Program-made: the position numbers and the translations under genes
In this document: positions 1 to 10,054 of the stretch, one piece after another
How positions within the stretch are numbered: position 1 is the stretch's first letter
How the letters are laid out: the number at the start of each line of letters is the position of its first letter
Virus record (IMG/VR): IMGVR_UViG_3300017917_002401
Location: 25,128-89,127 of that record
Length of the DNA: 64,000 bases
DNA from: a virus
Reading direction: 5' to 3' (one strand)
Notes under the pieces: model-generated
Seen by the model: only the letters and a program-made list of their open reading frames with translations
Told to the model about the DNA's origin: nothing
Database searches by the model: none

Positions 1-2
1 CA

Positions 3-122
3 GAACTCTTAGACGTGAACCTAGAGCTACTAGAATCGCTGGAAAAGGTAAACAAAGGCGTACTCAAGTTAATCGAAGATAAATTGCGAGAAACTGACCC
101 TAAACCGCACCAGGCAGCGTAA
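3..122 (+). CDS. 3' end of a gene truncated by the window edge; probable A2-like DNA-binding paralog
   Basis: Hand translation ELLDVNLELLESLEKVNKGVLKLIEDKLRETDPKPHQAA* resembles the C-terminus of the ORF at 1502-1807 (ELFESLEKANHEVLEVL); followed by a terminator. Confidence 0.55.
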   Translation, partial: ELLDVNLELLESLEKVNKGVLKLIEDKLRETDPKPHQAA

Positions 123-139
123 ATTGCACTTAATTCGAC

Positions 140-175
140 AAAAGCCCACATAATTTCGGTTATGTGGGCTTTTTT
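140..175 (+). terminator. Rho-independent terminator
   Basis: AAAGCCCACATAA-tttcgg-TTATGTGGGCTTT followed by a T run. Confidence 0.85.
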
Positions 176-265
176 GCGTGTGTGTACGTGGTTTGTATAA
201 ATTGCTACAGTTTAGGAACACCGACCGTGTTTTGGCAGTTTAGGGTCAGTGTCTAGAAAAAGCAC

Positions 266-295
266 TTGACAAAACCGGTTTGGCACTGGTAAAAT
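266..295 (+). promoter_or_regulatory. sigma70-type promoter with no downstream ORF
   Basis: TTGACA-18-TAAAAT then GGCGC; close sequence relative of 2090-2118. Confidence 0.6.
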
Positions 296-340
296 GGCGC
301 AGGCCGGGTGTGGAATTTCCCATGTGGGCTTTTTTAAGGC

Positions 341-379
341 AAAACAAAGCCCCCACAGCATGCCTGCTTGGGGGCTTTG
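341..379 (-). terminator. Terminator ending the minus-strand ncRNA transcript
   Basis: Minus strand CAAAGCCCCCA...TGGGGGCTTTG-TTTT. Confidence 0.75.
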
Positions 380-620
380 AACGGATTGTGTTGTTGGGGA
401 TCCCTCCGTTTTTAGTGCTCGCTTCACGACTTACCGAGGGGCACCACCCCTGCTGACTGCATGACCCTAAACCGTGGCACCTTGGACCCCGACTAGGTTA
501 TTGGGGTTGTAGCCACTGGTAGGTGAGACTGTTTGGTTATCTGGGGCACCACCCACTGATGGAGGATTGTTAACGTACAACGCCCTAAACGACTACTTGA
601 GGTTTAACGACCACTGCAGT

Positions 621-719
621 TTAGGGTCGGGCAGGGTATACCGCACTGCCATGCTTTTAACGACTTAGGGTCGGACAGGGTATACCGCACTGCCATGCTT
701 TTAACGACTTAGGGTCGGA
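621..719. repeat. 44-bp tandem direct repeat, 2.25 copies
   Basis: TTAGGGTCGG(G/A)CAGGGTATACCGCACTGCCATGCTTTTAACGAC at 621-664 and 665-708, partial copy at 709-719. Confidence 0.95.
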
Positions 720-872
720 TTGGTAGTGGGTTATCTCCCAGGTTTCTTAAAGTCAACCACTCTAGAGCCAAGACCATTTAACGTCTGGTACCAGGTACGA
801 CGGTTCGGATATAGGCATTGCACGCCTTGGGTTACTCATTTCCAGCGGGCCGTGGCCGCGTGCTGGGTTTTC

Positions 873-981
873 ATCCAGACCCCAAGGTGTTGCTGGCTGA
901 GAAGGTGGGTCTAAGTCTTCTCGAACGCCAGCACTGCGTGCCTTGGAGTTTCGTGCCATTGCAGGCTACTCATCAGTGGAT
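873..981 (-). ncRNA. Hammerhead ribozyme (type I topology, extended stem III)
   Basis: Minus strand: stem I AUCCA (981-977)/UGGAU (877-873); core CUGAUGA (976-970); stem II GU(A)GCC-UGCAAU-GGCAC; GAAA (952-949); stem III ACUCCAAGG/CCUUGGGGU; cleavage triplet GUC (880-878). Confidence 0.85.
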
Positions 982-983
982 TT

Positions 984-1058
984 TGGTATCCGATATGGGT
1001 TACGATCCCATCTAGCCACCTTGAAAGGGTGGTGACCTCACCAGAAGTCGAATCGGAC
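984..1058 (-). tRNA. tRNA-Glu (anticodon UUC), CCA encoded
   Basis: Acceptor GUCCGAU/AUCGGAU + ACCA; anticodon arm CCACC-CUUUCAA-GGUGG; T arm AUGGG-AUCGUAA-CCCAU; 75 nt. Confidence 0.9.
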
Positions 1059-1265
1059 ATTGTAGGTTGGGCGGTGACTAGAGAATTCGGTCACCATTAA
1101 GTTGTTATCTGCCTAATTGCATACTCATAACACCCATTGATTAAAGCTGTCTCTAATCAATGGAGGCTAAGGGCTGTGGCTCGGTATTCCCCACAATTAA
1201 GACGTATCACGTAGCAGTAGTATATCGCTGTGACCGCTGTCACCCTGTCTAACTAATATATAATA

Positions 1266-1294
1266 ATTATACAGTATTTAAAGTAGTAAATCAA
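1266..1294 (-). promoter_or_regulatory. sigma70 promoter for the tRNA/ribozyme transcript
   Basis: TTGATT-17-TATAAT on the minus strand. Confidence 0.75.
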
Positions 1295-1302
1295 GAGAGA
1301 AA

Positions 1303-1436
1303 TTAGACAGGCGTTGCAATCAGACTAGCACTACAGGTGAGACGTCATTCAGTGACTGGTTTGCGTGGTAGGCTGCTGTTGCACAAGGGGCCGGCAACTC
1401 GTTTGCCATTCATTAAGGCCCTTCCCGACTGTCTAA
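1303..1436 (-). ncRNA. Candidate ~135-nt structured RNA
   Basis: Starts just after a promoter; ends pair (UUAGACAG/CUGUCUAA); internal GGGCC...GGCCC and GGCAA/UUGCC stems; no credible ORF. Confidence 0.45.
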
Positions 1437-1442
1437 GATATT

Positions 1443-1471
1443 ATTATACACTGAATGGGGTCGAAGATCAA
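1443..1471 (-). promoter_or_regulatory. sigma70 promoter
   Basis: TTGATC-17-TATAAT on the minus strand. Confidence 0.75.
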
Positions 1472-1501
1472 GTACGAATTTCCTGACCCTCAACCGCAGC
1501 A

Positions 1502-1807
1502 TCAAAGGTTAGCTGCCAAAACCTCCAGCACTTCGTGGTTGGCCTTTTCCAGAGACTCAAACAGCTCTGGGGGGACGCCACAAGCCTGTGCCAGTTTGTC
1601 CACCAGCTCACTCTTACGCACACGGGCAACACCCTTGGCACGAGTTTTGGGGGTGTACACACCCTCACGACTCAGTTTAGCAACCACGCTTCGCACCGAT
1701 TTGCCCAGCTTTTCTGCGAGCATTTCAGGGGTTGCGCCCGCCTTGTACTCGTTAACGAGTTCCAGGGTTTGGGCTTCGGTATAGTTTACAGTACGCTCAG
1801 TCATCAT
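1502..1807 (-). CDS. T5 A2-like HTH DNA-binding protein, paralog 1
   Basis: VNYTEAQT...LGKSVRSVVAKLSREGVY; AAAGGA RBS; own promoter TTGACG-17-TATAAT at 1875-1847. Confidence 0.7.
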   Translation of the reverse strand: MMTERTVNYTEAQTLELVNEYKAGATPEMLAEKLGKSVRSVVAKLSREGVYTPKTRAKGVARVRKSELVDKLAQACGVPPELFESLEKANHEVLEVLAANL

Positions 1808-1855
1808 ATGTCCTTTCAGTTGGTTTCTGCGCCGATTAAAGATTATATTATACAC

Positions 1856-1990
1856 TCACAAAGGAACATCGTCAAATTCAAAAAATTCGCTGTGACTGTT
1901 GGTAGCTTGGCGAATTTCGCGGACCTCGTGGTCTACAAATTCCGCATACCACGCTTCCTGATCAAATTTGAAAAATTCACTGTCTGCCAT
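1856..1990 (-). CDS. Small acidic protein (44 aa)
   Basis: MADSEFFKFDQE...SEFFEFDDVPL; AAGGA RBS; promoter TTGTGT-17-TATAAT at 2046-2018. Confidence 0.6.
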   Translation of the reverse strand: MADSEFFKFDQEAWYAEFVDHEVREIRQATNSHSEFFEFDDVPL

Positions 1991-2089
1991 TTGCCATTCC
2001 TTGTAATCAATATAAATATTATAGCCGAGACAACTCCACAACACAAGACCCGATTTCTGCGCGTGTGTGAACACAAATTGAAAATACAC

Positions 2090-2200
2090 TTGACAAACTA
2101 GGTTTCGCACTGTATAATGGGCGCGGCCACCATCAAGGTTTTGCACTTGAAGGTTTTGCACTGGCGCAGCGCGCTTGGTGGTGTGGTCTTTTGTTTTCAA
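2090..2200 (+). promoter_or_regulatory. sigma70 promoter followed by a hairpin and T-tract (candidate short RNA)
   Basis: TTGACA-17-TATAAT-GGGCGC; ACCATCAAG/CTTGGTGGT stem enclosing AAGGTTTTGCACT twice; TTTTGTTTT. Confidence 0.55.
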
Positions 2201-2292
2201 ATTTCAAAAAATGTGAGAATTGAATACAAAAGTAGTACGTGTTGTTTTTTAACCACAAAAGTGTAACAGTTTGTAAAATTTGCAGAAAACGC

Positions 2293-2424
2293 TTGACACG
2301 CGCGCCAATATTATGATATAATTTTGGCGCAGCCATGTAATACTTTTGTTTTCAATTTTACCTGAAAACAAAAGTATTACACCTGATTTTGGGCAAAAAT
2401 AAACCCCGATTATCTCGGGGTTTT
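2293..2424 (+). repeat. Intergenic element copy 1 (palindromic promoter + 19-bp hairpin + terminator)
   Basis: TTGACA-18-TATAAT-TTTGGCGC; hairpin 2336-2381; AAACCCCGA-TTATC-TCGGGGTTT 2401-2424. Confidence 0.9.
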
Positions 2425-2427
2425 GGT

Positions 2428-2667
2428 TTAATGATATTCTGGAGTTATAACCAGCGCCGAATCGGGAATATCTACAAAACGCTGTACAATATCAACAGGC
2501 CAGTTATAGTGATAAAAACAATCTTCGTCTAGATAATCGCCCATGCCATAAAGGGTTTTATAATATTCAGCGGCACGATCTATAATAATCGCATTAATAG
2601 AATCAATCCGCATACCATTATATTCAGGCATGAAAATGCCCAATTCAACAAAATCAAAACGAATCAT
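2428..2667 (-). CDS. Hypothetical protein
   Basis: ORF with GGAG RBS before MIRFDF. Confidence 0.6.
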   Translation of the reverse strand: MIRFDFVELGIFMPEYNGMRIDSINAIIIDRAAEYYKTLYGMGDYLDEDCFYHYNWPVDIVQRFVDIPDSALVITPEYH

Positions 2668-2715
2668 ATTATCTCCAGTTAATCGGGTTGATAATGGGGC
2701 AATATGCCCCATTAT

Positions 2716-3048
2716 TTACAGTGGCTTTGAATTAGCCAGTGCATCAAAAATCGCTTTCAGTGCCGATTTATTGGCTTTTGTCAGCGATTCAATATCATTT
2801 TCGGGCAATCGCAAAATTGCGCCGATTGCATCGGCATGAGCATCTTTTTTCACAACCGGCTCACCAGTCTTGGAAACATAAGTTTTCTTTTTGTAGACGC
2901 CTTCGCGCGACAGTTTCGCAACAACCGACCGAACAGATTTACCGACAGTTTCAGCGATTTGGTCAACACCAACACCAGCGACATAATCGGACACCATTTT
3001 AGCCGTTTGTTCTGCGGTATAATTGACAGGTTTGCTAGTCTTTTCCAT
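2716..3048 (-). CDS. T5 A2-like HTH DNA-binding protein, paralog 2
   Basis: VNYTAEQT...VGKSVRSVVAKLSREGVY...ESLTKANK; AAAGG RBS; upstream TTGACT/TATAAT promoter. Confidence 0.7.
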   Translation of the reverse strand: MEKTSKPVNYTAEQTAKMVSDYVAGVGVDQIAETVGKSVRSVVAKLSREGVYKKKTYVSKTGEPVVKKDAHADAIGAILRLPENDIESLTKANKSALKAIFDALANSKPL

Positions 3049-3130
3049 GGTATTACCTTTCAGGTTTTCCGCTTGCCCCATTGCTTGCGGTATGTGTCTA
3101 TTATAGCGGGTTTTGGGCAAAAAAGTCAAG

Positions 3131-3283
3131 TGTGCAAAAATACAACATAGGGACAAACACCTATTGACACGAGCCAAAATTATGTGGTATAATTTTGGCG
3201 CAGCCTTGTAATACTTTTGTTTTCAATTTTAATCAGAAACAAAAGTATTACACCGGGGCAAAATAAAAAGGGCCGAAGCCCTT
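3131..3283 (+). repeat. Intergenic element copy 2
   Basis: AAAAATACAACATAGGG..CCTATTGACA(3164)-18-TATAAT-TTTGGCGC; hairpin 3207-3252; terminator AAGGGC-CGAA-GCCCTT. Confidence 0.9.
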
Positions 3284-3494
3284 AAAAAAAGTTAATCAAT
3301 CCGATTACATTGGCAACAAAAAACGTGCCATTAAGTACACCAAGCGCACGATCCTTACGCTTAAAGGCCACAAAAAGCCAGCTTAGTGAACCCAAAGTAA
3401 ACAGCACATAACCAATTTGAAACATTTTGGTTGCAACAGCAAATGAACCCAAAATGCTAGTAAAAGTGCCAAACCAAGAAACAAAAGTAATCAT
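3282..3494 (-). CDS. Small membrane protein (3 hydrophobic segments)
   Basis: 70-aa hydrophobic ORF; ATGA overlap with the upstream gene. Confidence 0.7.
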   Translation of the reverse strand: MITFVSWFGTFTSILGSFAVATKMFQIGYVLFTLGSLSWLFVAFKRKDRALGVLNGTFFVANVIGLINFF

Positions 3495-3871
3495 TTTCGG
3501 GGAATCTCCATTGAATGAAATTTATCAGCGGGTAAACCGTAGTTTACCATAATTTCGCACCATTTGCTACCATGTCCACAACTTTTTTCGCTAGGCCCGA
3601 ACAAATTCCAGTCAGCCTGATGAATAATTTCATGCGGAAGTATTACATCTATCATTGTGTTAAATGTTTTGTTTCCGTGTTTGAAAAATTTGTAACCCAA
3701 TTCGATTACATTATCTTCTTGAAAACATTGCCCTGCACAACGCCAAAAGTAAGGATTCAGTTTTACTTTTGGCACATCGTATGCCATTAAAGTAGGATAA
3801 ATTTCAATAAGTGTATCCCAAATCATTACAGATTCGCGTTCGATCAGGGTTAACAGTTTTTTCTTGTCCAT
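3491..3871 (-). CDS. SprT-like zinc metalloprotease
   Basis: AGQC...ILPHEIIH...GHGSKW, the SprT HExxH + HG..W pattern. Confidence 0.8.
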   Translation of the reverse strand: MDKKKLLTLIERESVMIWDTLIEIYPTLMAYDVPKVKLNPYFWRCAGQCFQEDNVIELGYKFFKHGNKTFNTMIDVILPHEIIHQADWNLFGPSEKSCGHGSKWCEIMVNYGLPADKFHSMEIPRK

Positions 3872-3911
3872 AGCCTACATTATACACGCAAAACCAGACC
3901 ACACACGCCAA

Positions 3912-4070
3912 GTGCAAAAATACAACATAGGGGAAAACACCTATTGACACGGGCACAATTTTAATGATAAAATTGGCGCCCGGAATGTAATACTTTTGTT
4001 TTCAATTTTAATCCAAAACAAAAGTATTACATTGTGGTAAAATAAAACCCCGATTATCTCGGGGTTTTTT
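3912..4070 (+). repeat. Intergenic element copy 3
   Basis: TTGACA(3944)-18-TAAAAT-TGGCGC; hairpin 3984-4033; terminator identical to that of copy 1. Confidence 0.9.
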
Positions 4071-4323
4071 ATTTTCTTTTCGGAGCCAGTTTATAATAAA
4101 TGATAACAGCCAAAAAGATAATATTAGTTGTGTAATTAAGCAACAGCGGCAAATCCATTTTGGGCATAATATAAATAAATGTAAAGATTTCGCCAAACGA
4201 CCATAATAGCAAAAATCCCCAAGTTAATCCTGCCGATGATTTTGTTTTCCAAGATTCTATTGCCTGCGGTAATCCGCATAATGCTAGCATAATAGAGCCA
4301 AGCCAACCAATATTATCCATCAT
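4069..4323 (-). CDS. PQ-loop / SemiSWEET-like membrane protein
   Basis: IGWLGSIMLALCGLPQAIESWKTKSSAGL; three TM segments; 84 aa. Confidence 0.8.
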   Translation of the reverse strand: MMDNIGWLGSIMLALCGLPQAIESWKTKSSAGLTWGFLLLWSFGEIFTFIYIMPKMDLPLLLNYTTNIIFLAVIIYYKLAPKRK

Positions 4324-4436
4324 TTTAAAATCTCCGTTTCAGTTTGAATAATAAAAGGCTTTTTCTCAATTTCAGATTCTAGCCTTTTATCATTATATAA
4401 ATGCAAACAGAGGGCGATTATCCAAAGCGTTTTCAT
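4320..4436 (-). CDS. Small hypothetical protein (38 aa)
   Basis: Hand-translated MKTLWIIALCLHLY...; fills the gap between genes; G-rich RBS; overlaps the next start. Confidence 0.45.
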   Translation of the reverse strand: MKTLWIIALCLHLYNDKRLESEIEKKPFIIQTETEILK

Positions 4437-4452
4437 ATAATCGCCCCCGTTA

Positions 4453-5151
4453 TTATTTAGCGGTAAAATTATTTTTTACCTGAAAATCACGCCAGTTATA
4501 AGGGATGATTTTCTCGCGCCAATCGCGTTTTTTAAGAATATTAACCAAAATCGGCAATTCAAAATCTCGCGCATCTTCAAGAGCCGTATGAGGTTCGTCA
4601 ATAATTTGATTATTGATAAAACCCGCAACAATTTCGGCATTAGTTTGATAGGTCATATTGCCATTATCTGTAGCCTTATTGAATGCGTGATTTTCAAGGG
4701 CAAATTGACGATATTTGCGAGAATGGCAGATATTACCAACAGCCGCTTGCCAAAGGCAAAAACGATTATTAAACCCTGAAAGGTCAATATCAGTATTTGC
4801 ACATTTTGCAGTATCAAAAGCCAGATTATATGCGGTAAGTGTTGGATTATATTTGCCGATTGCTTGATTAAGCCATTTATTAATGGCATTAACAGAGGCA
4901 AGCAAACGTGTGCCATTATTCAACATATCATTATATTTTGCTTTTTTGGATTGTGCATATTCAAAAGACCAAATACCCTTAGCATTTTTATCATAGAATA
5001 AATCCATAGAATCAAAATGATTTTTGACCAGAACAGCGCAACTATTAAAAATCTGGCCTTCACGGTCGCAGATAATAGCGGCAAAATCAGCGACAGTATC
5101 GCCAATTGTGGTTTCAGTGTCAACGATACAGAAATATTGTTTTTTAGCCAT
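4453..5151 (-). CDS. DEDDh 3'-5' exonuclease
   Basis: Motifs DTETT, AYNLAFD, HTALEDA. Confidence 0.85.
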   Translation of the reverse strand: MAKKQYFCIVDTETTIGDTVADFAAIICDREGQIFNSCAVLVKNHFDSMDLFYDKNAKGIWSFEYAQSKKAKYNDMLNNGTRLLASVNAINKWLNQAIGKYNPTLTAYNLAFDTAKCANTDIDLSGFNNRFCLWQAAVGNICHSRKYRQFALENHAFNKATDNGNMTYQTNAEIVAGFINNQIIDEPHTALEDARDFELPILVNILKKRDWREKIIPYNWRDFQVKNNFTAK

Positions 5152-5310
5152 TTTGTTTTCAATTACCGGAAACCGCCGGAATTCGCGGATACCGCATAAC
5201 GTCTGCGGTATGAGTGTATTATAACGGGTTTTTGCCCATTGTGCCAAAATAAAGTGTAACAGTCAGACCAGATTGTTACAAATTTTTTGTTGTATTTTTC
5301 GCAAAACCCC

Positions 5311-5399
5311 TTGACACGGCCCAAAATTATATGTTATAATTTTGGCGCAAGTTTTGCAAACAAAAGTATTCATTTTTGTTTGCAAACCAAAGTGTTACA
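5311..5399 (+). repeat. Intergenic element copy 4 (variant hairpin)
   Basis: TTGACA-18-TATAAT-TTTGGCGC; TTTGCAAACAAAA/TTTTGTTTGCAAA hairpin 5353-5386. Confidence 0.85.
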
Positions 5400-5586
5400 A
5401 GTTATTTTCTTTAATAAAATCGTCAATGGCATTTTCTAGAGTTTTACCAGAATACCAATAACCGCCTATTTTATTAGAAAATATAGAATAATATGGGTCA
5501 AATTCATTTTCCTCCTCATCTTCATCTATATTATGATAATCAATTTTTAATTGATATTCTTTAATAATTGCAAAATAATCTCTCAT
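5395..5586 (-). CDS. Hypothetical acidic protein
   Basis: MRDYFAII... starts 1 nt after the upstream stop. Confidence 0.6.
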   Translation of the reverse strand: MRDYFAIIKEYQLKIDYHNIDEDEEENEFDPYYSIFSNKIGGYWYSGKTLENAIDDFIKENNL

Positions 5587-5587
5587 T

Positions 5588-6064
5588 TTAGTGGCCTTGT
5601 TTTGAGGGAACATAAACCCCACGGATATTAAACCGATCGCAAACAGCTTTCAAATATTGGACATTATCCTCATAAAATGTAAATTCAGCATTTGCAAATG
5701 GTTTCAGATTAAAGAATTTAGTTAATCCTGCGATTTTGAGTTTACCGCCTGAAATAGTATCACCATCAATACGGGAAATAATATAATCAGGTTCACCGAG
5801 AATATTGCGGATAAATGCATTATCAGCATCCCGCAAAACGCGGGCAGTAGCAATAATAACAAAACAATTTTCATCTTTTAAATCCGCTTTATATTGTTCG
5901 GCCAATGGCAGCAGAGAATCATCTTCTGCACGATATTCATTTTCGCGCCAATAGTTCAAGTCGATTCGTTCACCATTATCATCAACAATTGTACGGTAAC
6001 GGTGAAGGCTACAAACGATTGTACCATCCATGTCATAAATTGAAACCCGTTTGATCTTTGCCAT
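5588..6064 (-). CDS. HAD-superfamily phosphatase (PNK-phosphatase/nucleotidase-like)
   Basis: IYDMDGTI (motif I), ATAR (II), K (III), FYEDN (IV); GAGGA RBS. Confidence 0.85.
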   Translation of the reverse strand: MAKIKRVSIYDMDGTIVCSLHRYRTIVDDNGERIDLNYWRENEYRAEDDSLLPLAEQYKADLKDENCFVIIATARVLRDADNAFIRNILGEPDYIISRIDGDTISGGKLKIAGLTKFFNLKPFANAEFTFYEDNVQYLKAVCDRFNIRGVYVPSKQGH

Positions 6065-6132
6065 TTTGCAATCCTCTGTTTGTTGCGGTATGTCTAGATT
6101 ATACCCCAGTTTTCCCCGATTGACACACATTT

Positions 6133-6248
6133 GCGAAAATACAACATAGGGATAAACCCCTATTGACACGCCCCAAAATTATATGCTATAATTTTGGCGC
6201 AAAATTGAATACCTGAGTATTCAATTTGTTTTGCAAACAAAGGTATTA
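6133..6248 (+). repeat. Intergenic element copy 5 (variant hairpin)
   Basis: AAAATACAACATAGGGATAAACCCCTATTGACA(6163)-18-TATAAT-TTTGGCGC; AAATTGAATAC/GTATTCAATTT hairpin. Confidence 0.85.
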
Positions 6249-6578
6249 TTCTTCGTCAACGTCTGGTAAGTAAACCTCACGCAAACCAAAATGCTTTTCC
6301 ATTTTGCGCGCATATTTAATAAATTGTGGGCCGTGGGTTTCGGTTAATTTATTTTCTTCTTGCCATGCATGAATCAACTCATGGGCAACAAGTGTATCAA
6401 AATCACGGGTATTATCTTTATAAAAGATCGTGATATTATGTTCCTTTAGTTTACCCGTTTTATCTGAATATTCAGGTTCATATTCAGCATCAGCCCATTT
6501 ATTTTTACGGGTAACAATCCGCAAATTAACGGGTTTCTTCAAGCCCAAATAATGGATAAATTCATAAAGGTTTTTCAT
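6246..6578 (-). CDS. SprT-like HExxH metalloprotein
   Basis: LVAHELIHAWQ...THGPQF. Confidence 0.75.
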   Translation of the reverse strand: MKNLYEFIHYLGLKKPVNLRIVTRKNKWADAEYEPEYSDKTGKLKEHNITIFYKDNTRDFDTLVAHELIHAWQEENKLTETHGPQFIKYARKMEKHFGLREVYLPDVDEE

Positions 6579-6579
6579 A

Positions 6580-6711
6580 TCATGCCCCAGTCATCATTTG
6601 AAAATAATCATTAAATTCTTCGTCAGTCCAAACCCATGCAGGGCACATATTCATAAGCGCATCATAATATGTGCCCGACATATTCCAAACAATATAATTG
6701 TTTTTGTTCAT
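6580..6711 (-). CDS. Small hypothetical protein (43 aa)
   Basis: Hand-translated MNKNNYIVWN...; ATGA overlap with the upstream ORF. Confidence 0.5.
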   Translation of the reverse strand: MNKNNYIVWNMSGTYYDALMNMCPAWVWTDEEFNDYFQMMTGA

Positions 6712-6869
6712 CGGTCTGCAAGCCTTTTCAAAACGTCGATGTTATCCCAGAGTATAGCATAAAGCATCTCTTGGCACAAGTCGTAAAATTCTTTTTTCTC
6801 GGCATCGGTGGCCACGTCCTCACGCATGAGGCAGAGCAGGAATTGGTAACGGTCTTTGTTTGTCATCAT
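6708..6869 (-). CDS. Small hypothetical protein (53 aa)
   Basis: Hand-translated MMTNKDRYQFLLCL...VLKRLADR; directly after a TATAAT box. Confidence 0.55.
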   Translation of the reverse strand: MMTNKDRYQFLLCLMREDVATDAEKKEFYDLCQEMLYAILWDNIDVLKRLADR

Positions 6870-6909
6870 GCCTCTATTATATCACAAAACACCAGACACG
6901 CGCACGTTT

Positions 6910-7045
6910 GTAAAAATACAACATAGGGATAAACCCCTATTGACACGCGCTCCAATATTATGGTATAATATTGGCGCCTGCGCTGTAATACCTTTGTTTT
7001 CAATTTGTGTTGAAAACAAAGGTATTACAAGGGGCTTTCGCCCCT
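6910..7045 (+). repeat. Intergenic element copy 6
   Basis: TTGACA(6940)-18-TATAAT-ATTGGCGC; 20-bp hairpin 6984-7029; terminator AGGGGC-TTTC-GCCCCT. Confidence 0.9.
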
Positions 7046-7049
7046 GTAA

Positions 7050-7373
7050 TCAGGCTTTCTCAGCCTTGATAAAATCGGCAATCTTTGCCAATGCCGTTTT
7101 GTTAGCTTTGGTCAGTGATTCCGTATCGGCCTCAGTCAGGCCCAGAGCAGAACCGATGTAATCGGCCCATTCGTCTTTTTTCACAACAGCCTCACCAGTT
7201 TTAGTGGTGTAGGTTTTCTTTTTGTAAACACCCTCACGCGACAGTTTAGCAACAACAGAACGAACCGATTTGCCCAGTGTTTCAGCAATAGCCTCTACAG
7301 TCACGCCAGTGGTATAGTCTCCTACCATCTTGGCAGTTTGTTCCGGGGTGTAATTCACAGTTTTAGCAGTCAT
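7050..7373 (-). CDS. T5 A2-like HTH DNA-binding protein, paralog 3
   Basis: VNYTPEQT...LGKSVRSVVAKLSREGVY...ESLTKANK; AGGAG RBS. Confidence 0.7.
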   Translation of the reverse strand: MTAKTVNYTPEQTAKMVGDYTTGVTVEAIAETLGKSVRSVVAKLSREGVYKKKTYTTKTGEAVVKKDEWADYIGSALGLTEADTESLTKANKTALAKIADFIKAEKA

Positions 7374-7406
7374 TTAAAAATCTCCTGAAAAGTCAAGGTT
7401 AAAAAA

Positions 7407-7613
7407 TCAATCAAGTTTGTTAAGACGTTCAGCCTTATCAAGTTCCATATCATACACCATTTTAACAAGATATGCAAGCATCAAGACACAAGCGCCAATG
7501 CCTACATTCACAGGGCCAAACAGTGTAAGTAGCTTAGCGATAACAAAGCCAGATACAATGGCAGTGCCAATGAGCCAAGCAACATTAAACAGTGCAGTTT
7601 GTTTCGGGGTCAT
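7407..7613 (-). CDS. Small 2-TM membrane protein
   Basis: Two hydrophobic segments; AAGGA RBS. Confidence 0.65.
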   Translation of the reverse strand: MTPKQTALFNVAWLIGTAIVSGFVIAKLLTLFGPVNVGIGACVLMLAYLVKMVYDMELDKAERLNKLD

Positions 7614-7625
7614 GGTTTCATCCTT

Positions 7626-7718
7626 TCAAGGTTTCATCACAAAAACAAAGTATAACACAAAGGGCAAGGCAATGCAAGCGGCAAAACCCAGTGCATCAAA
7701 AAATTCTCGCTTATTCAT
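7626..7718 (-). CDS. Small membrane peptide (30 aa)
   Basis: MNKREFFDALGFAACIALPFVLYFVFVMKP with GGAG RBS. Confidence 0.5.
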   Translation of the reverse strand: MNKREFFDALGFAACIALPFVLYFVFVMKP

Positions 7719-7872
7719 ACCAAATATCTCCAACAATTTTTCCATCAACAAACACAAAATAAATTGTACAATAACCAGAACGTGCAGAATAGTTATTGTT
7801 GCCATGATGCACAACATCGTATGCGCCCATGTCACGCTTAAGAATCGCTACCAGTGCATCAACGTGTTGCAT
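7711..7872 (-). CDS. Hypothetical protein (53 aa)
   Basis: AAGGA RBS before MQHVDAL; TATAAT upstream. Confidence 0.6.
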   Translation of the reverse strand: MQHVDALVAILKRDMGAYDVVHHGNNNYSARSGYCTIYFVFVDGKIVGDIWYE

Positions 7873-8160
7873 TTGTGTTTCCTTGTTGTCCATGTGCTCA
7901 ATTATACATGGATTATGCGCTAGTGCAAGCATTTTTCTAGAATTTTTACAAATTGTTACATCTTAGCTAGTTGGTTCACAATTTACTTAGGAAACAAAAG
8001 TACACAGACCAGGGGCGGTTAGTAGACCAAAGTTTACACACATGCCTGGGGACCCACCGGCACGGAAACTATATGGGATTTTTTCAACATTCAATAAGGT
8101 GCCAAATCTGCTCAGGCACAGCCTGACCCTAAACTGCAACAAGCTATCACAAGCCGTCGT

Positions 8161-8203
8161 AACCCACCCAACCACCCCCAACCACCCCAACCACCCCCAC
8201 CCC
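8161..8203. repeat. C-rich short tandem repeat (ACCACCCC(C)A); G-runs on the minus strand
   Basis: AACCCACCCAACCACCCCCAACCACCCCAACCACCCCCACCC. Confidence 0.85.
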
Positions 8204-8225
8204 AAGCAGCCACAAAATTTTTGAC

Positions 8226-8254
8226 TTGATCCACACATCCTAACCTGTTATAAT
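8226..8254 (+). promoter_or_regulatory. Promoter of the terminase operon
   Basis: TTGATC-17-TATAAT. Confidence 0.75.
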
Positions 8255-8276
8255 TGCCCAAGAGGAGACCAATTTT

Positions 8277-8753
8277 ATGAGTACCCATTTACCTGCGGAG
8301 GTTGTCAATATCTCCCCCGAGGCACTGGAAGTGTCTAACTGCTACCTACAACTACAAGACGCCCGACAAGTAGCCGATGAATTAGGCTTACCTATTGAAC
8401 AAGTTACCGATATTCTTGGCCGTCGTGAGGTCAAGCGTTATATTGACCAAGTTTTCTTTGATACCGGCTACAACAATCGTTTTTTAATGCGTCGTGCAAT
8501 GGACGCACTTATTAAAAAGAAATTTAGTGAGCTTGATGAGTCGGATACTGGTTCGTCAAAAGACATTGCCGAATTATTGGCCATGTCGCATAAAATGTCA
8601 ATGGACCTCTTAGACCGTGAGATTCAGCTTGAGAAAATTCGTAGCGGTCCTGGTGGCCCACAGAAGCAAGTTAACGTACAAATCAACGAAGGCCTAGACG
8701 GGTCGAAATACTCGCAACTTGTACAACGCCTGGTCAGTGGAGAAGGAATTTAA
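8277..8753 (+). CDS. terS: Terminase small subunit (T5-like)
   Basis: ISPEALEV..YL N-terminal HTH; directly upstream of terL; GAGGAG RBS. Confidence 0.85.
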   Translation: MSTHLPAEVVNISPEALEVSNCYLQLQDARQVADELGLPIEQVTDILGRREVKRYIDQVFFDTGYNNRFLMRRAMDALIKKKFSELDESDTGSSKDIAELLAMSHKMSMDLLDREIQLEKIRSGPGGPQKQVNVQINEGLDGSKYSQLVQRLVSGEGI

Positions 8754-10054
8754 TGCTGCTAATATCTCGTTCGGACATAGATCGTGATGCTATAACTGAG
8801 TTTGATGCTAGTCGCCGATTTATTAAACTACCTATTGTTAACTACTTAAAGCTGCTAGATATCTGGGACACGGTAAACCGTCCACAAATGGCCCTAATCA
8901 ACGCGGTGAATTCACCCAAGTACCGTTTCATTTGCGCCGCGCTAGCGCGCCGTCTAGGAAAAACTTATATAGCCAACGTAATCGGCCAGTTAGTGACACT
9001 GGTCCCGGGGTCGAATGTACTTATTATTTCACCCAACTATAACCTTTCGTCAATTTCATTCGACTTGCAACGTAAGCTGATCCGTCACTTTGACCTAGAA
9101 GTTGCGCGCGATAACCTAAAAGATAAAATAATTGAGCTGGAAAATGGAAGTACCATTCGCATGGGTAGTTTGTCAACGGTAGATAGTTGTGTTGGTCGCA
9201 GCTACGACTTGATTATTTTTGATGAAGCTGCACTAGGTGAGGGCGGTGAGGCTGCGTTTAACGTTGCGCTACGTCCTACTCTGGACAAGCCCAATGCAAA
9301 AGCCATTTTTATTAGTACACCCCGTGGTAAGCAGAACTGGTTTAGTCAATTTTGGAATCGCGGCTTTGACCCTAACTTTCCGGAGTGGGTTAGCCTGCAA
9401 GCTGATTATACTGAAAACACTCGCATGGCTGAGTCAGACGTGGCAGAAGCTCGTCGTGCTATGTCGCGAGCAGAATTTGAGCAAGAGTACATGGCTTCGT
9501 TTACCACATATGAGGGTCAGATTTTTAATCTAGCCGAATCAGATGTAATCGAAGACTTGCCTGAACACGTTATTAGTGGCAATAGTTGTGAATACATTGC
9601 TGGTTGTGACCCTGGCTATCGCGACTATACTGCGTTTGTGGTATTAGCATATTCGTGGATTGATGACTGCTTTTATGTACTAGACGAATACTTGGATAAT
9701 GAAAAAACCACATCAGGGCATGCTGAAGAGTTTCAGAAGCTGGTAGGCAAGTGGGGTGTTGAGATTGTGTTTATTGATAGTGCTGCTGCACAGTTTGCTG
9801 CTGACCTTGCCTATACCTACAATATTGCAACAACCAAAGCCAAAAAAGATGTGCTACCTGGAATTGCTTATGCTCAAACACTTGTGGGTCAAGGTCGCCT
9901 GAAAATCGCCAAGCACTGTACTCATGTACTAGCAATGATGGATCAGTATCGCTGGGATGACAAAGAAGGGCTACAGCGTGAGCGTCCAAAACACGATGAC
10001 TATTCGCACATGGCAGACGCACTGCGATATGCTCTCTATAGTTATACCATTTAA
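8753..10054 (+). CDS. terL: Terminase large subunit
   Basis: Walker A ARRLGKT, Walker B LIIFDEAA, ISTPRG, nuclease GCDPG and HMADALRY. Confidence 0.95.
   Translation: MLLISRSDIDRDAITEFDASRRFIKLPIVNYLKLLDIWDTVNRPQMALINAVNSPKYRFICAALARRLGKTYIANVIGQLVTLVPGSNVLIISPNYNLSSISFDLQRKLIRHFDLEVARDNLKDKIIELENGSTIRMGSLSTVDSCVGRSYDLIIFDEAALGEGGEAAFNVALRPTLDKPNAKAIFISTPRGKQNWFSQFWNRGFDPNFPEWVSLQADYTENTRMAESDVAEARRAMSRAEFEQEYMASFTTYEGQIFNLAESDVIEDLPEHVISGNSCEYIAGCDPGYRDYTAFVVLAYSWIDDCFYVLDEYLDNEKTTSGHAEEFQKLVGKWGVEIVFIDSAAAQFAADLAYTYNIATTKAKKDVLPGIAYAQTLVGQGRLKIAKHCTHVLAMMDQYRWDDKEGLQRERPKHDDYSHMADALRYALYSYTI

Follow-up and report, generated by a model that had tools for sequence, protein, structure and literature searches.

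Six copies of a composite promoter-like element punctuate an array of minus-strand gene cassettes in the 64-kb window analysed here (bases 25128-89127 of a single 89,127-bp virus record in IMG/VR), whose phage is, by its gene content, a T5-like siphovirus. With a probability of about 40%, we read each copy as the combination of a repressible σ70 promoter, a T5-type strand-interruption site at the start of that promoter, and a core that serves as a joint for cassette shuffling. The reading turns on the word GGCGC, found just past the −10 box. A DNA-level role is the best single explanation for this word because its avoidance follows the absolute strand, contigs begin within it, and it has parallels in phage T5. 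These three lines of evidence were absent from the initial annotation of the stretch, which had been made from the sequence alone, and they shift the interpretation toward a DNA-level signal.

Anatomy of the repeated element

The copies begin at positions 2293, 3164, 3944, 5311, 6163 and 6940 of the plus strand, where the initial annotation had placed them. With up to two mismatches allowed, the pattern TTGACACG-N16-TAWAAT-N3-GGCGC has six matches, against a mean of 0.01 in 100 dinucleotide-preserving shuffles, none of which reached six. Every copy carries TTGACA, an 18-bp spacer, the extended −10 motif TGn and TATAAT (TAAAAT in copy 3). The same six rank at the top of a promoter scan of positions 1 to 9000, five of them scoring 12/12 and copy 3 scoring 11/12. 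GGCGC lies 1 or 3 nt past the −10 box; spacer, −10 box and TGGCGC-type start word are present in each copy, in line with the original description. Judged by its sequence conservation, the promoter is likely to be real.

The −10 box is also the right arm of a palindrome (CCAAAATTATA..TATAATTTTGG and variants), another feature already noted in the first reading of the DNA. Its arms are 11 + 11 bp long, and in most copies it is centred on TGn, overlapping the core promoter as the operator of a dimeric repressor would.

A second palindrome follows GGCGC. The initial annotation had described a long hairpin after each copy, and every copy does have a perfect one, with folding z-scores of −3.7 to −9.2 in five of the six; that of copy 5 is weak (z −1.25). 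The hairpin sequences of copies 4 and 5 differ from those of the other copies, and copy 6 has compensated pairs in both palindromes (TACCTTTG with CAAAGGTA, and CCAATATTA with TAATATTGG), all as first observed. Terminator-like stems of the oncoming genes come after copies 1, 2, 3 and 6, which matches the four terminators initially reported; the hairpin of copy 4 directly adjoins the oncoming gene's stop at 5395. In copies 1 and 3 the downstream stems also have a T-rich tail on the plus strand. The flanking open reading frames with family matches are all on the minus strand, and the promoters do point against them as had been claimed. From one element to the next, the GGCGC sites are clustered 0.8-1.4 kb apart. 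A search of positions 1 to 9000 against Rfam returned no family at its gathering score, the best being Phe_leader with 38.5 bits against 55.

Two more plus-strand promoters, at 266 and 2090, had escaped the initial annotation and bring the plus-strand total with GGCGC to eight. Both keep the −35 box, the −10 box and GGCGC, with a GGTTTnGCACTG spacer in the palindrome's place; TGn is kept at 266. The 2090 promoter is followed by a second, promoter-less GGCGC at 2163-2167 (GCACTG/GCGCAG; here and below the slash marks the actual or putative interruption).

Conservation among related phages

A scan of IMG/VR with the promoter pattern yielded at least 175 loci, which were pooled with further loci, among them those found through TerS; a looser pattern was used to count elements. 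The pooled loci contain at least 378 distinct elements. Among the matches listed, TTGACA is present in 354/378, TATAAT in 332/378, the 18-bp spacer in 350/378 and TGn in 288/378, counts in which part of the conservation is fixed by the search expression itself. In loci found through TerS only, 60 of 60 full-length nhmmer matches are on the TerS strand, and the 48 distinct matches include 46 with TTGACA, 47 with TA.AAT, 40 with TGn and 47 with GGCGC. Some of these elements have a quite different spacer, for example AGCCAGCCAGCC, while −35, −10 and GGCGC are kept. Thus, at the level of sequence, what stays constant is GGCGC together with the positions contacted by the polymerase, and the palindrome, though frequent, is a module that can be replaced. 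A search for the palindrome standing apart from the promoter gave no instance.

Orientation is equally constant. Flanking sequence is long enough for a comparison in 66 elements: the longer open frame lies opposite to the element in 44 cases versus 4 on the downstream side, and in 48 versus 3 on the upstream side; antisense placement is therefore the rule. The promoter reading given by the initial annotation gains from this wider sample, the −35, TGn and −10 positions being held, in fixed antisense orientation, over at least 378 copies.

GGCGC itself is not tied to the promoter. Its distance to the −10 box ranges from 0 to 4 nt among the matches listed, and promoter-less GGCGC is paired with a hairpin in 17/55 cases in arrays versus 1/56 in late genes. 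This variable distance and these promoter-less pairs make GGCGC a separate module.

Strand-specific avoidance of GGCGC

The plus strand of the 89-kb genome holds 18 GGCGC, where about 37 are expected; the complement occurs 35 times, with about 35 expected. The promoters account for eight of the 18, and the site after the 2090 promoter for one more. Three other complete genomes of the clade behave in the same way, and we measured the avoidance in the resulting set of four (G000, G001, G002 and G004), which are relatives rather than independent samples. Against a Markov expectation of 163, the four genomes have 89 GGCGC, the lowest z of all 1024 5-mers.

Coding effects were controlled by shuffling synonymous codons within each gene. 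On the promoter strand, GGCGC occurs 38 times in plus-strand genes, against 118.8 ± 9.6, and 8 times in minus-strand genes, against 39.8 ± 5.9: a 3- to 5-fold depletion that is genome-wide. The opposite strand is not depleted (70 vs 66.9 and 57 vs 68.3). Since the word is depleted in both gene orientations on one strand, its avoidance follows the absolute strand and not transcription. Of all 5-mers tested, GGCGC alone is strongly one-sided, and six of its one-base variants show no depletion in the four genomes. Most of the remaining words with depletion in both gene sets belong to palindromic sites (containing AATT or TCGA) and are depleted in both orientations, as expected from avoidance of palindromic restriction sites; GAATT and AATTC are likewise depleted in T5.

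Each genome retains 18-28 GGCGC on the promoter strand. Outside the array, TTGGCGC is found on this strand at genome positions 13953 and 87761 (window −11174 and 62634) and recurs at corresponding places of G001, G002 and G004: one site is present in three of the four genomes and the other in all four, the genomes being about 70% identical. They may represent additional places where this signal functions.

Contig ends and the T5 parallel

Nine contigs, from different assemblies and at different elements, start exactly at the GCGC of an element. The TerS-anchored contigs whose upstream end falls in the loci number 73, four of which start there (L239, L245, L267 and L282); the pattern scan contributes L010, L035 and L178, among the matches listed, and an independent hairpin-word scan L378, and the metagenome contig L450 starts likewise. 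As for other starts, one contig begins at −1 and one at −2, and every other offset in the element is represented by 1-2 contigs. A k=31 assembly of the probable source run gave repeat-driven breaks elsewhere in the elements, with overlaps of about 24-30 nt. A further scan with another hairpin word brought no new start at the junction in its 32 loci; its one start, at −11, had already been counted. A single contig tail just before GCGC is uninformative, as the locus sets are unable to contain contigs of that kind.

The T5 nick consensus is R/GCGCRGG, and the function of the nicks is described as unknown in the available text of PMC3517423. The T5 record AY543070 assigns its major interruptions to the minus strand through the consensus Pu pGCGC, with which every one of the eight window promoters agrees as G/GCGC. 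T5 TerL is encoded on the nicked (minus) strand, with the right terminal repeat 3.6 kb away; the plus strand of the window bears both TerL and the elements, so that the elements share the TerL-sense strand as T5's annotated nicks do.

The parallel extends to one site of the non-coding region. T5 site 1, in the injection-stop region, reads TTTGCACAAAA/GCGCAGGGCAATTGCCCTGC, after GTCGGATTTGCAC repeats and before AATGAGAAT- and AATGCGAAT-type palindromes. Positions 2150-2170 of the window read GGTTTTGCACTG/GCGCAG, and the predicted architecture of 2090-2167 resembles that of a T5 major interruption site; post-GGCGC hairpins in the relatives include AAATGCGAA..TTCGCATTT and AAATGAGAA..TTCTCATTT. 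The likeness to the single-chain interruptions of T5 and BF23 (AY543070 and, as far as their available text goes, PMC3517423 and PMC10644984) therefore comprises Pu/GCGC on the terminase-sense strand only, together with one site in a repeat-rich non-coding region by the early cassettes, with a TTTGCAC-type repeat before it and palindromes after it.

A one-strand motif has a precedent in Pseudomonas phage tf, where a single strand carries all occurrences of the nick motif and of its one-substitution variants, and where co-evolution of nickase and site is suggested (PMC3517423, available text). This parallels the strand-specific reservation of GGCGC, although the motif and the phage group are different and no link to promoters is reported in that text.

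On the minus strand of AY543070, positions 78936-78965 contain two copies of an iss-type repeat (GGATTTGCAC), inside gene D13 and near 64.8% of genome length. They are about 360 bp from the consensus-annotated site 78573. We take 64.8% of the T5 genome length to be the map position of a major nick.

A model for the element and the points against it

On the composite reading, each copy would be a modular boundary element of the early cassette array, built from four parts: a near-consensus σ70 promoter with extended −10, on the terminase-sense strand and against the cassette genes; usually an 11+11-bp palindrome on TGn, by means of which a phage protein acting as a dimer would be able to cover the −10 box; the invariant GGCGC at the start site; and a perfect palindrome starting about 3 nt beyond it. 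GGCGC would be a strand-specific signal at the DNA level, most likely a T5-type single-strand interruption G/GCGC with the 5' end pGCGC. The nicked strand would be the non-template strand for the element promoter and the template strand for the cassette genes. A break on incoming virion DNA could then leave the antisense promoter usable or pre-opened while hindering read-through from cassette to cassette, a state that would change once the break is repaired or a repressor binds the palindrome. Finally, the conserved core of about 38 bp, in direct repeats, would supply the homology for loss, gain and reordering of cassettes.

We infer here the transcription start at the element, a nick rather than a cut, the responsible protein and the physiological effect. 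The DNA-binding paralogs of the array may be the palindrome binders, for which their position alone makes them candidates. A more specific form of the model, which we regard as tentative and on the whole unlikely, is that virion DNA is nicked at G/GCGC within consensus host promoters, on the template strand of the early cassettes, and that the nick is an on/off mark. Carried by the incoming DNA and gone after ligation or replication, such a mark would pre-open the antisense promoter and block inter-cassette read-through in the first minutes of infection.

Several observations weigh against the composite reading. Evidence for the putative nick is indirect, as the contig ends could mark double-strand ends or assembler behaviour. 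The four genomes tested for avoidance are related to one another. VGGCGC is avoided more (15/67 and 0/27) than TGGCGC (23/52 and 8/14), yet the elements carry TGGCGC. The T5 extension GCGCRGG is found only at 266 (GCGCAGG) and is absent from all six copies, which read GCGCAGC (two copies), GCGCCCG, GCGCAAG, GCGCAAA and GCGCCTG. T5 failed as a positive control for nick-word avoidance: its nicked strand does not avoid RGCGC (47 vs 50 in minus-strand genes). None of the annotated T5 sites that we inspected lies in a visible promoter. The putative nicks described here thus differ from those of T5, which are outside promoters and have a word that is not avoided elsewhere, and they differ as well in the close clustering of their sites. 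Lastly, the model requires neither a perfect consensus promoter nor a hairpin, and part of the anatomy is left over.

Transcription and the hairpin

A purely transcriptional account is somewhat less probable than the composite one. It sees in the element a strong immediate-early promoter that is shut off by a repressor at the palindrome and produces short non-coding RNAs, convergent with the neighbouring cassette and with a hairpin at the 5' end. The element would insulate cassettes because its polymerases collide with those reading through, or would supply antisense RNA against the 3' end of the cassette. GGCGC would do no more than mark the start or serve as discriminator, with unrelated causes for its genome-wide avoidance and for the contig ends. 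The conservation of consensus −35, TGn and −10 over hundreds of copies, the antisense rule, and the palindrome centred on the extended −10 all speak for this account. So does the layout around the elements, where a minus-strand terminator-like stem and the cassette's own promoter flank the element in a strongly insulating arrangement, and so do the T-rich-tailed plus-strand stems after copies 1 and 3.

The hairpin fits it in position: in 142 elements, the best inverted repeat starts at a median of 3 nt after GGCGC, with a median stem of 12 bp, and would be near the 5' end of any transcript. Its sequences fall into at least 10 unrelated families. In an alignment of 42 sequences of the type-1 family, 88% of the cells are paired and 5 pairs differ at both positions; none of 500 shuffles (0.053) reached the covariation score of 0.083, and pairing is therefore selected. 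The initial annotation had already supposed that symmetry is under selection. An oriented word, AAAC-N4-GTATTCA, occurs downstream of GGCGC in the relatives, with AGTATTCA in 113 elements versus 7 for its complement. Beyond the first hairpin, many of the relatives' elements (loci L001-L284) have a second palindrome, GTTTCACGTGAAAC.

The hairpin fits less well in substance. A plus-strand T-tract terminator is not general, as it follows 17 of 101 GC-rich stems. The stems are almost purely Watson-Crick: in one set the mismatches are GT 3, AC 5 and other 22, and a second wobble count of GT 11 vs AC 9 again gives no sign of G·U tolerance or strand bias. Minimum free energy does not favour the plus strand either (58 vs 82). 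The strand of folding, tried as a means to discriminate RNA from DNA, was uninformative, with no bias in energy or wobble. As far as sequence can tell, the constraint fits a structure formed on both strands or in DNA, and an RNA-only constraint is not supported.

The family of discrete 60-100-nt hairpin RNAs that the initial annotation had envisaged is not supported by these results, given the sparse terminators, the unconserved hairpin sequence and the lack of G·U tolerance. In a terminator-bounded small RNA gene, the strand of the promoter would also carry an RNA of conserved sequence and an intrinsic terminator; here the sequence is not conserved and the terminator is not general. Phages do have convergent antisense small-RNA units, in which a promoter fires toward the 3' end of a neighbouring gene and makes a short structured RNA; such RNAs have a defined terminator and a conserved sequence complementary to the target. 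In contrast, most of the elements here lack a terminator, and there is free variation in the sequence of the hairpin.

Beyond the hairpin, the transcriptional account meets difficulties with GGCGC. A signal linked to transcription would be expected to follow gene orientation, but avoidance tracks the absolute strand and is most severe in the genes for which this strand serves as template (8 vs 39.8). A start or discriminator sequence would not be expected at a changing distance from the −10 box, or next to hairpins that have no promoter. The nine contigs that start at G/GCGC are also left unaccounted for.

Less probable readings: double-strand ends, recombination joints alone and restriction

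The contig ends could instead be double-strand ends, the elements being cut in packaging or in the formation of terminal repeats; we consider this improbable. The starts at G/GCGC are indeed exact, and the array sits where, in T5, the terminal repeat meets the terminase region. In addition, C follows GGCGC in about half of the elements (181/378, among the matches listed), giving the 6-bp palindrome GGCGCC, whose two strands could both be cleaved. However, the element at which a contig starts varies from relative to relative, its distance upstream of TerS ranging from 1.4 to 5.1 kb; GGCGCC is not the sequence at six of the nine, and each genome offers six to eight equivalent sites. One-orientation avoidance would moreover be unexpected from a symmetric cutter.

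Cassette exchange at the elements is documented by comparison. In 13 relatives with long flanks, the same cassettes recur and their differences are bounded by elements. The order of the DUF6552-SprT and PQ-p38-p232 cassettes is alike in the window, L218, L255, L265, L268 and L251, and is reversed in L221, L269, L228 and L246; a second SprT-like gene and a 79-aa gene are present in some relatives only. Between relatives, element copies are 80-94% identical and genes 66-79%. Related metagenome contigs join 3943 to 5310, 3979 to 5358 and 6193 back to 5356, at the promoter start or right at GGCGC; their short sides make them hints. At the level of comparative anatomy, a shuffling role is shown by these sequences. 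The recombination joint proposed by the initial annotation is borne out in this sense: modules are swapped at the elements, with joints at the boundary of promoter, GGCGC and hairpin, and gene gain and loss between relatives have their breakpoints there.

This recalls the PeSL cassettes of T4-type phages, in which an early σ70-type promoter and a stem-loop are repeated (PMC4122927, available text). Both systems are hyperplastic regions of small accessory genes that undergo gain, loss and reordering at repeats. The differences are marked, though. The conserved promoter opposes the genes here, and each cassette has a less conserved sense promoter; the hairpin comes after the promoter, where the PeSL stem-loop comes before it as a terminator; an operator-like palindrome and the reserved GGCGC are added; and the hosts of the element are T5-like siphoviruses and not T4-like phages. 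PeSL, named as an analogue in the initial annotation, is therefore apt for the composite repeat and the breakpoints at elements, and inapt for the promoter, which does not drive sense transcription behind an upstream terminator.

That the elements are mainly recombination joints of the PeSL kind, with an antisense orientation of no further role, has little probability in our view. The swapped, lost and gained modules, the contig joints and the higher identity of the elements are all accounted for. Any repeat would do for this purpose, yet the polymerase contacts and GGCGC are invariant while the spacer changes, and all copies face one way with respect to the genome as a whole; nor does this reading explain why GGCGC is avoided elsewhere.

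Type III-like restriction requires inversely oriented copies of an asymmetric site, and escape from such a host system, unrelated to the elements, could limit depletion to one orientation and one word; it is very improbable, as the depletion is partial (18-28 sites left per genome), the retained sites are concentrated and conserved in elements, and the contig ends at G/GCGC are not accounted for.

Genomic context

The TerL of the window is 50% identical to the terminases of Vibrio T5-like phages and 46% to that of T5. Further T5-like genes in the window encode portal, protease and capsid, tape measure, SbcCD-like nuclease, RusA-like resolvase, exonuclease, SSB, helicase, DNA polymerase, RNR and PhoH. 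Window positions 1-9000 and 2200-7100 have no DNA match among GenBank phages. A TerS search of IMG/VR found 349 related stretches; the window therefore represents a large uncultured clade. Of the public sequencing runs, a pond metagenome is alone in containing a near-complete copy and may be the source; no RNA run is listed for the stretch, and the contigs aligned to it show no pile-ups.

The array (Table 1) contains three DNA-binding paralogs, DUF6552, two SprT-like proteins, a PQ-loop protein, a 232-aa protein, a PNK-like phosphatase and small open reading frames. It sits between the terminase genes and a repeat-rich non-coding stretch, in mirror image of the T5 arrangement. By analogy, it would be a set of early cassettes at the place of the T5 terminal-repeat genes, beside the injection stop signal.

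A fourth DNA-binding paralog at 15-122 of the plus strand ends at 122; the family is about 105 aa long (PHROG 1725/323), and the number of its paralogs is similar to the number of promoter spacer types. All four paralogs are retained in relatives. Pfam gave only a sub-threshold match to GcrA, and tblastn with a paralog found no match among GenBank phages. The label "A2-like" used by the initial annotation is upheld only as far as a weak match to T5 A2 (E 0.034 in a single comparison).

Back-to-back with the element, every cassette carries a promoter of its own on the minus strand. Copies 5 and 6 also have, immediately before the −35 box, a terminator-like stem on the minus strand (ATAGGGG..CCCTAT, then a T-rich tail). 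Neither feature had been noted in the initial annotation. The sequence of the stem is conserved in copies 2 and 3 too, and it is orientation-specific in relatives (AACATAGG, 76 vs 1).

Table 1 Features of the cassette array and its surroundings, in window coordinates.
Feature	Position	Strand	Details
Cassette array	1502..7932	-	family matches, open reading frames
DNA-binding paralogs in array	1502-1807, 2716-3048, 7050-7373	-	
Element copy 1	2293..2381	+	-35 2293-2298; TGn/-10 ends 2322; GGCGC 2326-2330; perfect 19-bp hairpin 2336-2381
Element copy 2	3164..3252	+	promoter 3164-3193; GGCGC 3197-3201; hairpin 3207-3252
Element copy 3	3944..4031	+	promoter 3944-3973 (TAAAAT); GGCGC 3975-3979 (1 nt past -10); hairpin 3986-4031
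Element copy 4	5311..5393	+	promoter 5311-5340; GGCGC 5344-5348; hairpin TTTGCAAACAAAA..TTTTGTTTGCAAA
Element copy 5	6163..6248	+	promoter 6163-6192; GGCGC 6196-6200; hairpin AATTGAATAC..GTATTCAATT, then motif GCAAACAAAGGTATTA
Element copy 6	6940..7029	+	promoter 6940-6969; GGCGC 6973-6977; perfect 20-bp hairpin 6984-7029; compensated changes
Oncoming-gene terminator, copy 1	2401..2423	-	
Oncoming-gene terminator, copy 2	3268-3283	-	
Oncoming-gene terminator, copy 3	4044-4068		scored on +
Oncoming-gene terminator, copy 6	7024-7050	-	
Variant promoter	266..300	+	same -35, TGn, -10; GGCGCAGG; GGTTTGGCACTGG spacer replaces palindrome; in non-coding repeat region
Variant promoter	2090..2167	+	GGTTTCGCACTG spacer, GGGCGC, then GGTTTTGCAC repeats
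A2-like cassette promoter	3100..3129	-	TTGACT-18-TATAAT; back-to-back with copy 2
PQ-p38-p232 cassette promoter	5218..5247	-	TTGGCA-18-TATAAT
PNK-like cassette promoter	6098..6126	-	GTGTCA-17-TATAAT
Terminator-like stem	6146..6163; again 6923-6940	-	ATAGGGGTTTATCCCTAT then GTTGTATTTT; between divergent promoters

The non-coding DNA at 122-1500 and 2100-2290 is GC-richer, has no convincing open reading frames and separates a convergent plus-strand block from the minus-strand array, at the location of T5's repeat-rich injection-stop region. Within it are a 44-bp tandem repeat (621-708) and, in both orientations, copies of GACCCTAAAC, a sequence that recurs at 8125 and at other places of the genome. 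ARAGORN places a tRNA-Glu (TTC) at 984-1058 of the minus strand, where an Rfam scan (E up to 1) listed no tRNA.

Two genes appear leaderless, the SprT-like gene starting at 3871 and a 53-aa open reading frame starting at 6869: TATAAT stands 6-7 nt ahead of their ATG (sites 3869-3884 and 6867-6881, minus strand), without a Shine-Dalgarno sequence. Where the array and the late genes diverge, CCACCCC-type repeats (aacccacccaaccaccccc...) fill positions 8161-8215, just upstream of the promoter-like site of TerS. A read-through (antitermination) role of the elements toward the late genes was set aside, as TerS has this promoter-like site (8226-8254) and minus-strand genes intervene.

Implications

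GGCGC fits the T5 interruption consensus, is conserved at hundreds of promoter starts and avoided elsewhere on the same strand, and is a point at which several assemblies break. If the breaks are real, this clade ties nicks to the control of transcription of the first genes to be expressed, and the T5-type strand interruptions, whose function is called unknown in the available text of PMC3517423, would gain one. An antisense, operator-bearing counterpart of PeSL in T5-like phages appears to have no earlier description in the literature searched, and the same appears true of a word reserved on one strand of a whole phage genome. Both would stand as new even without nicks.

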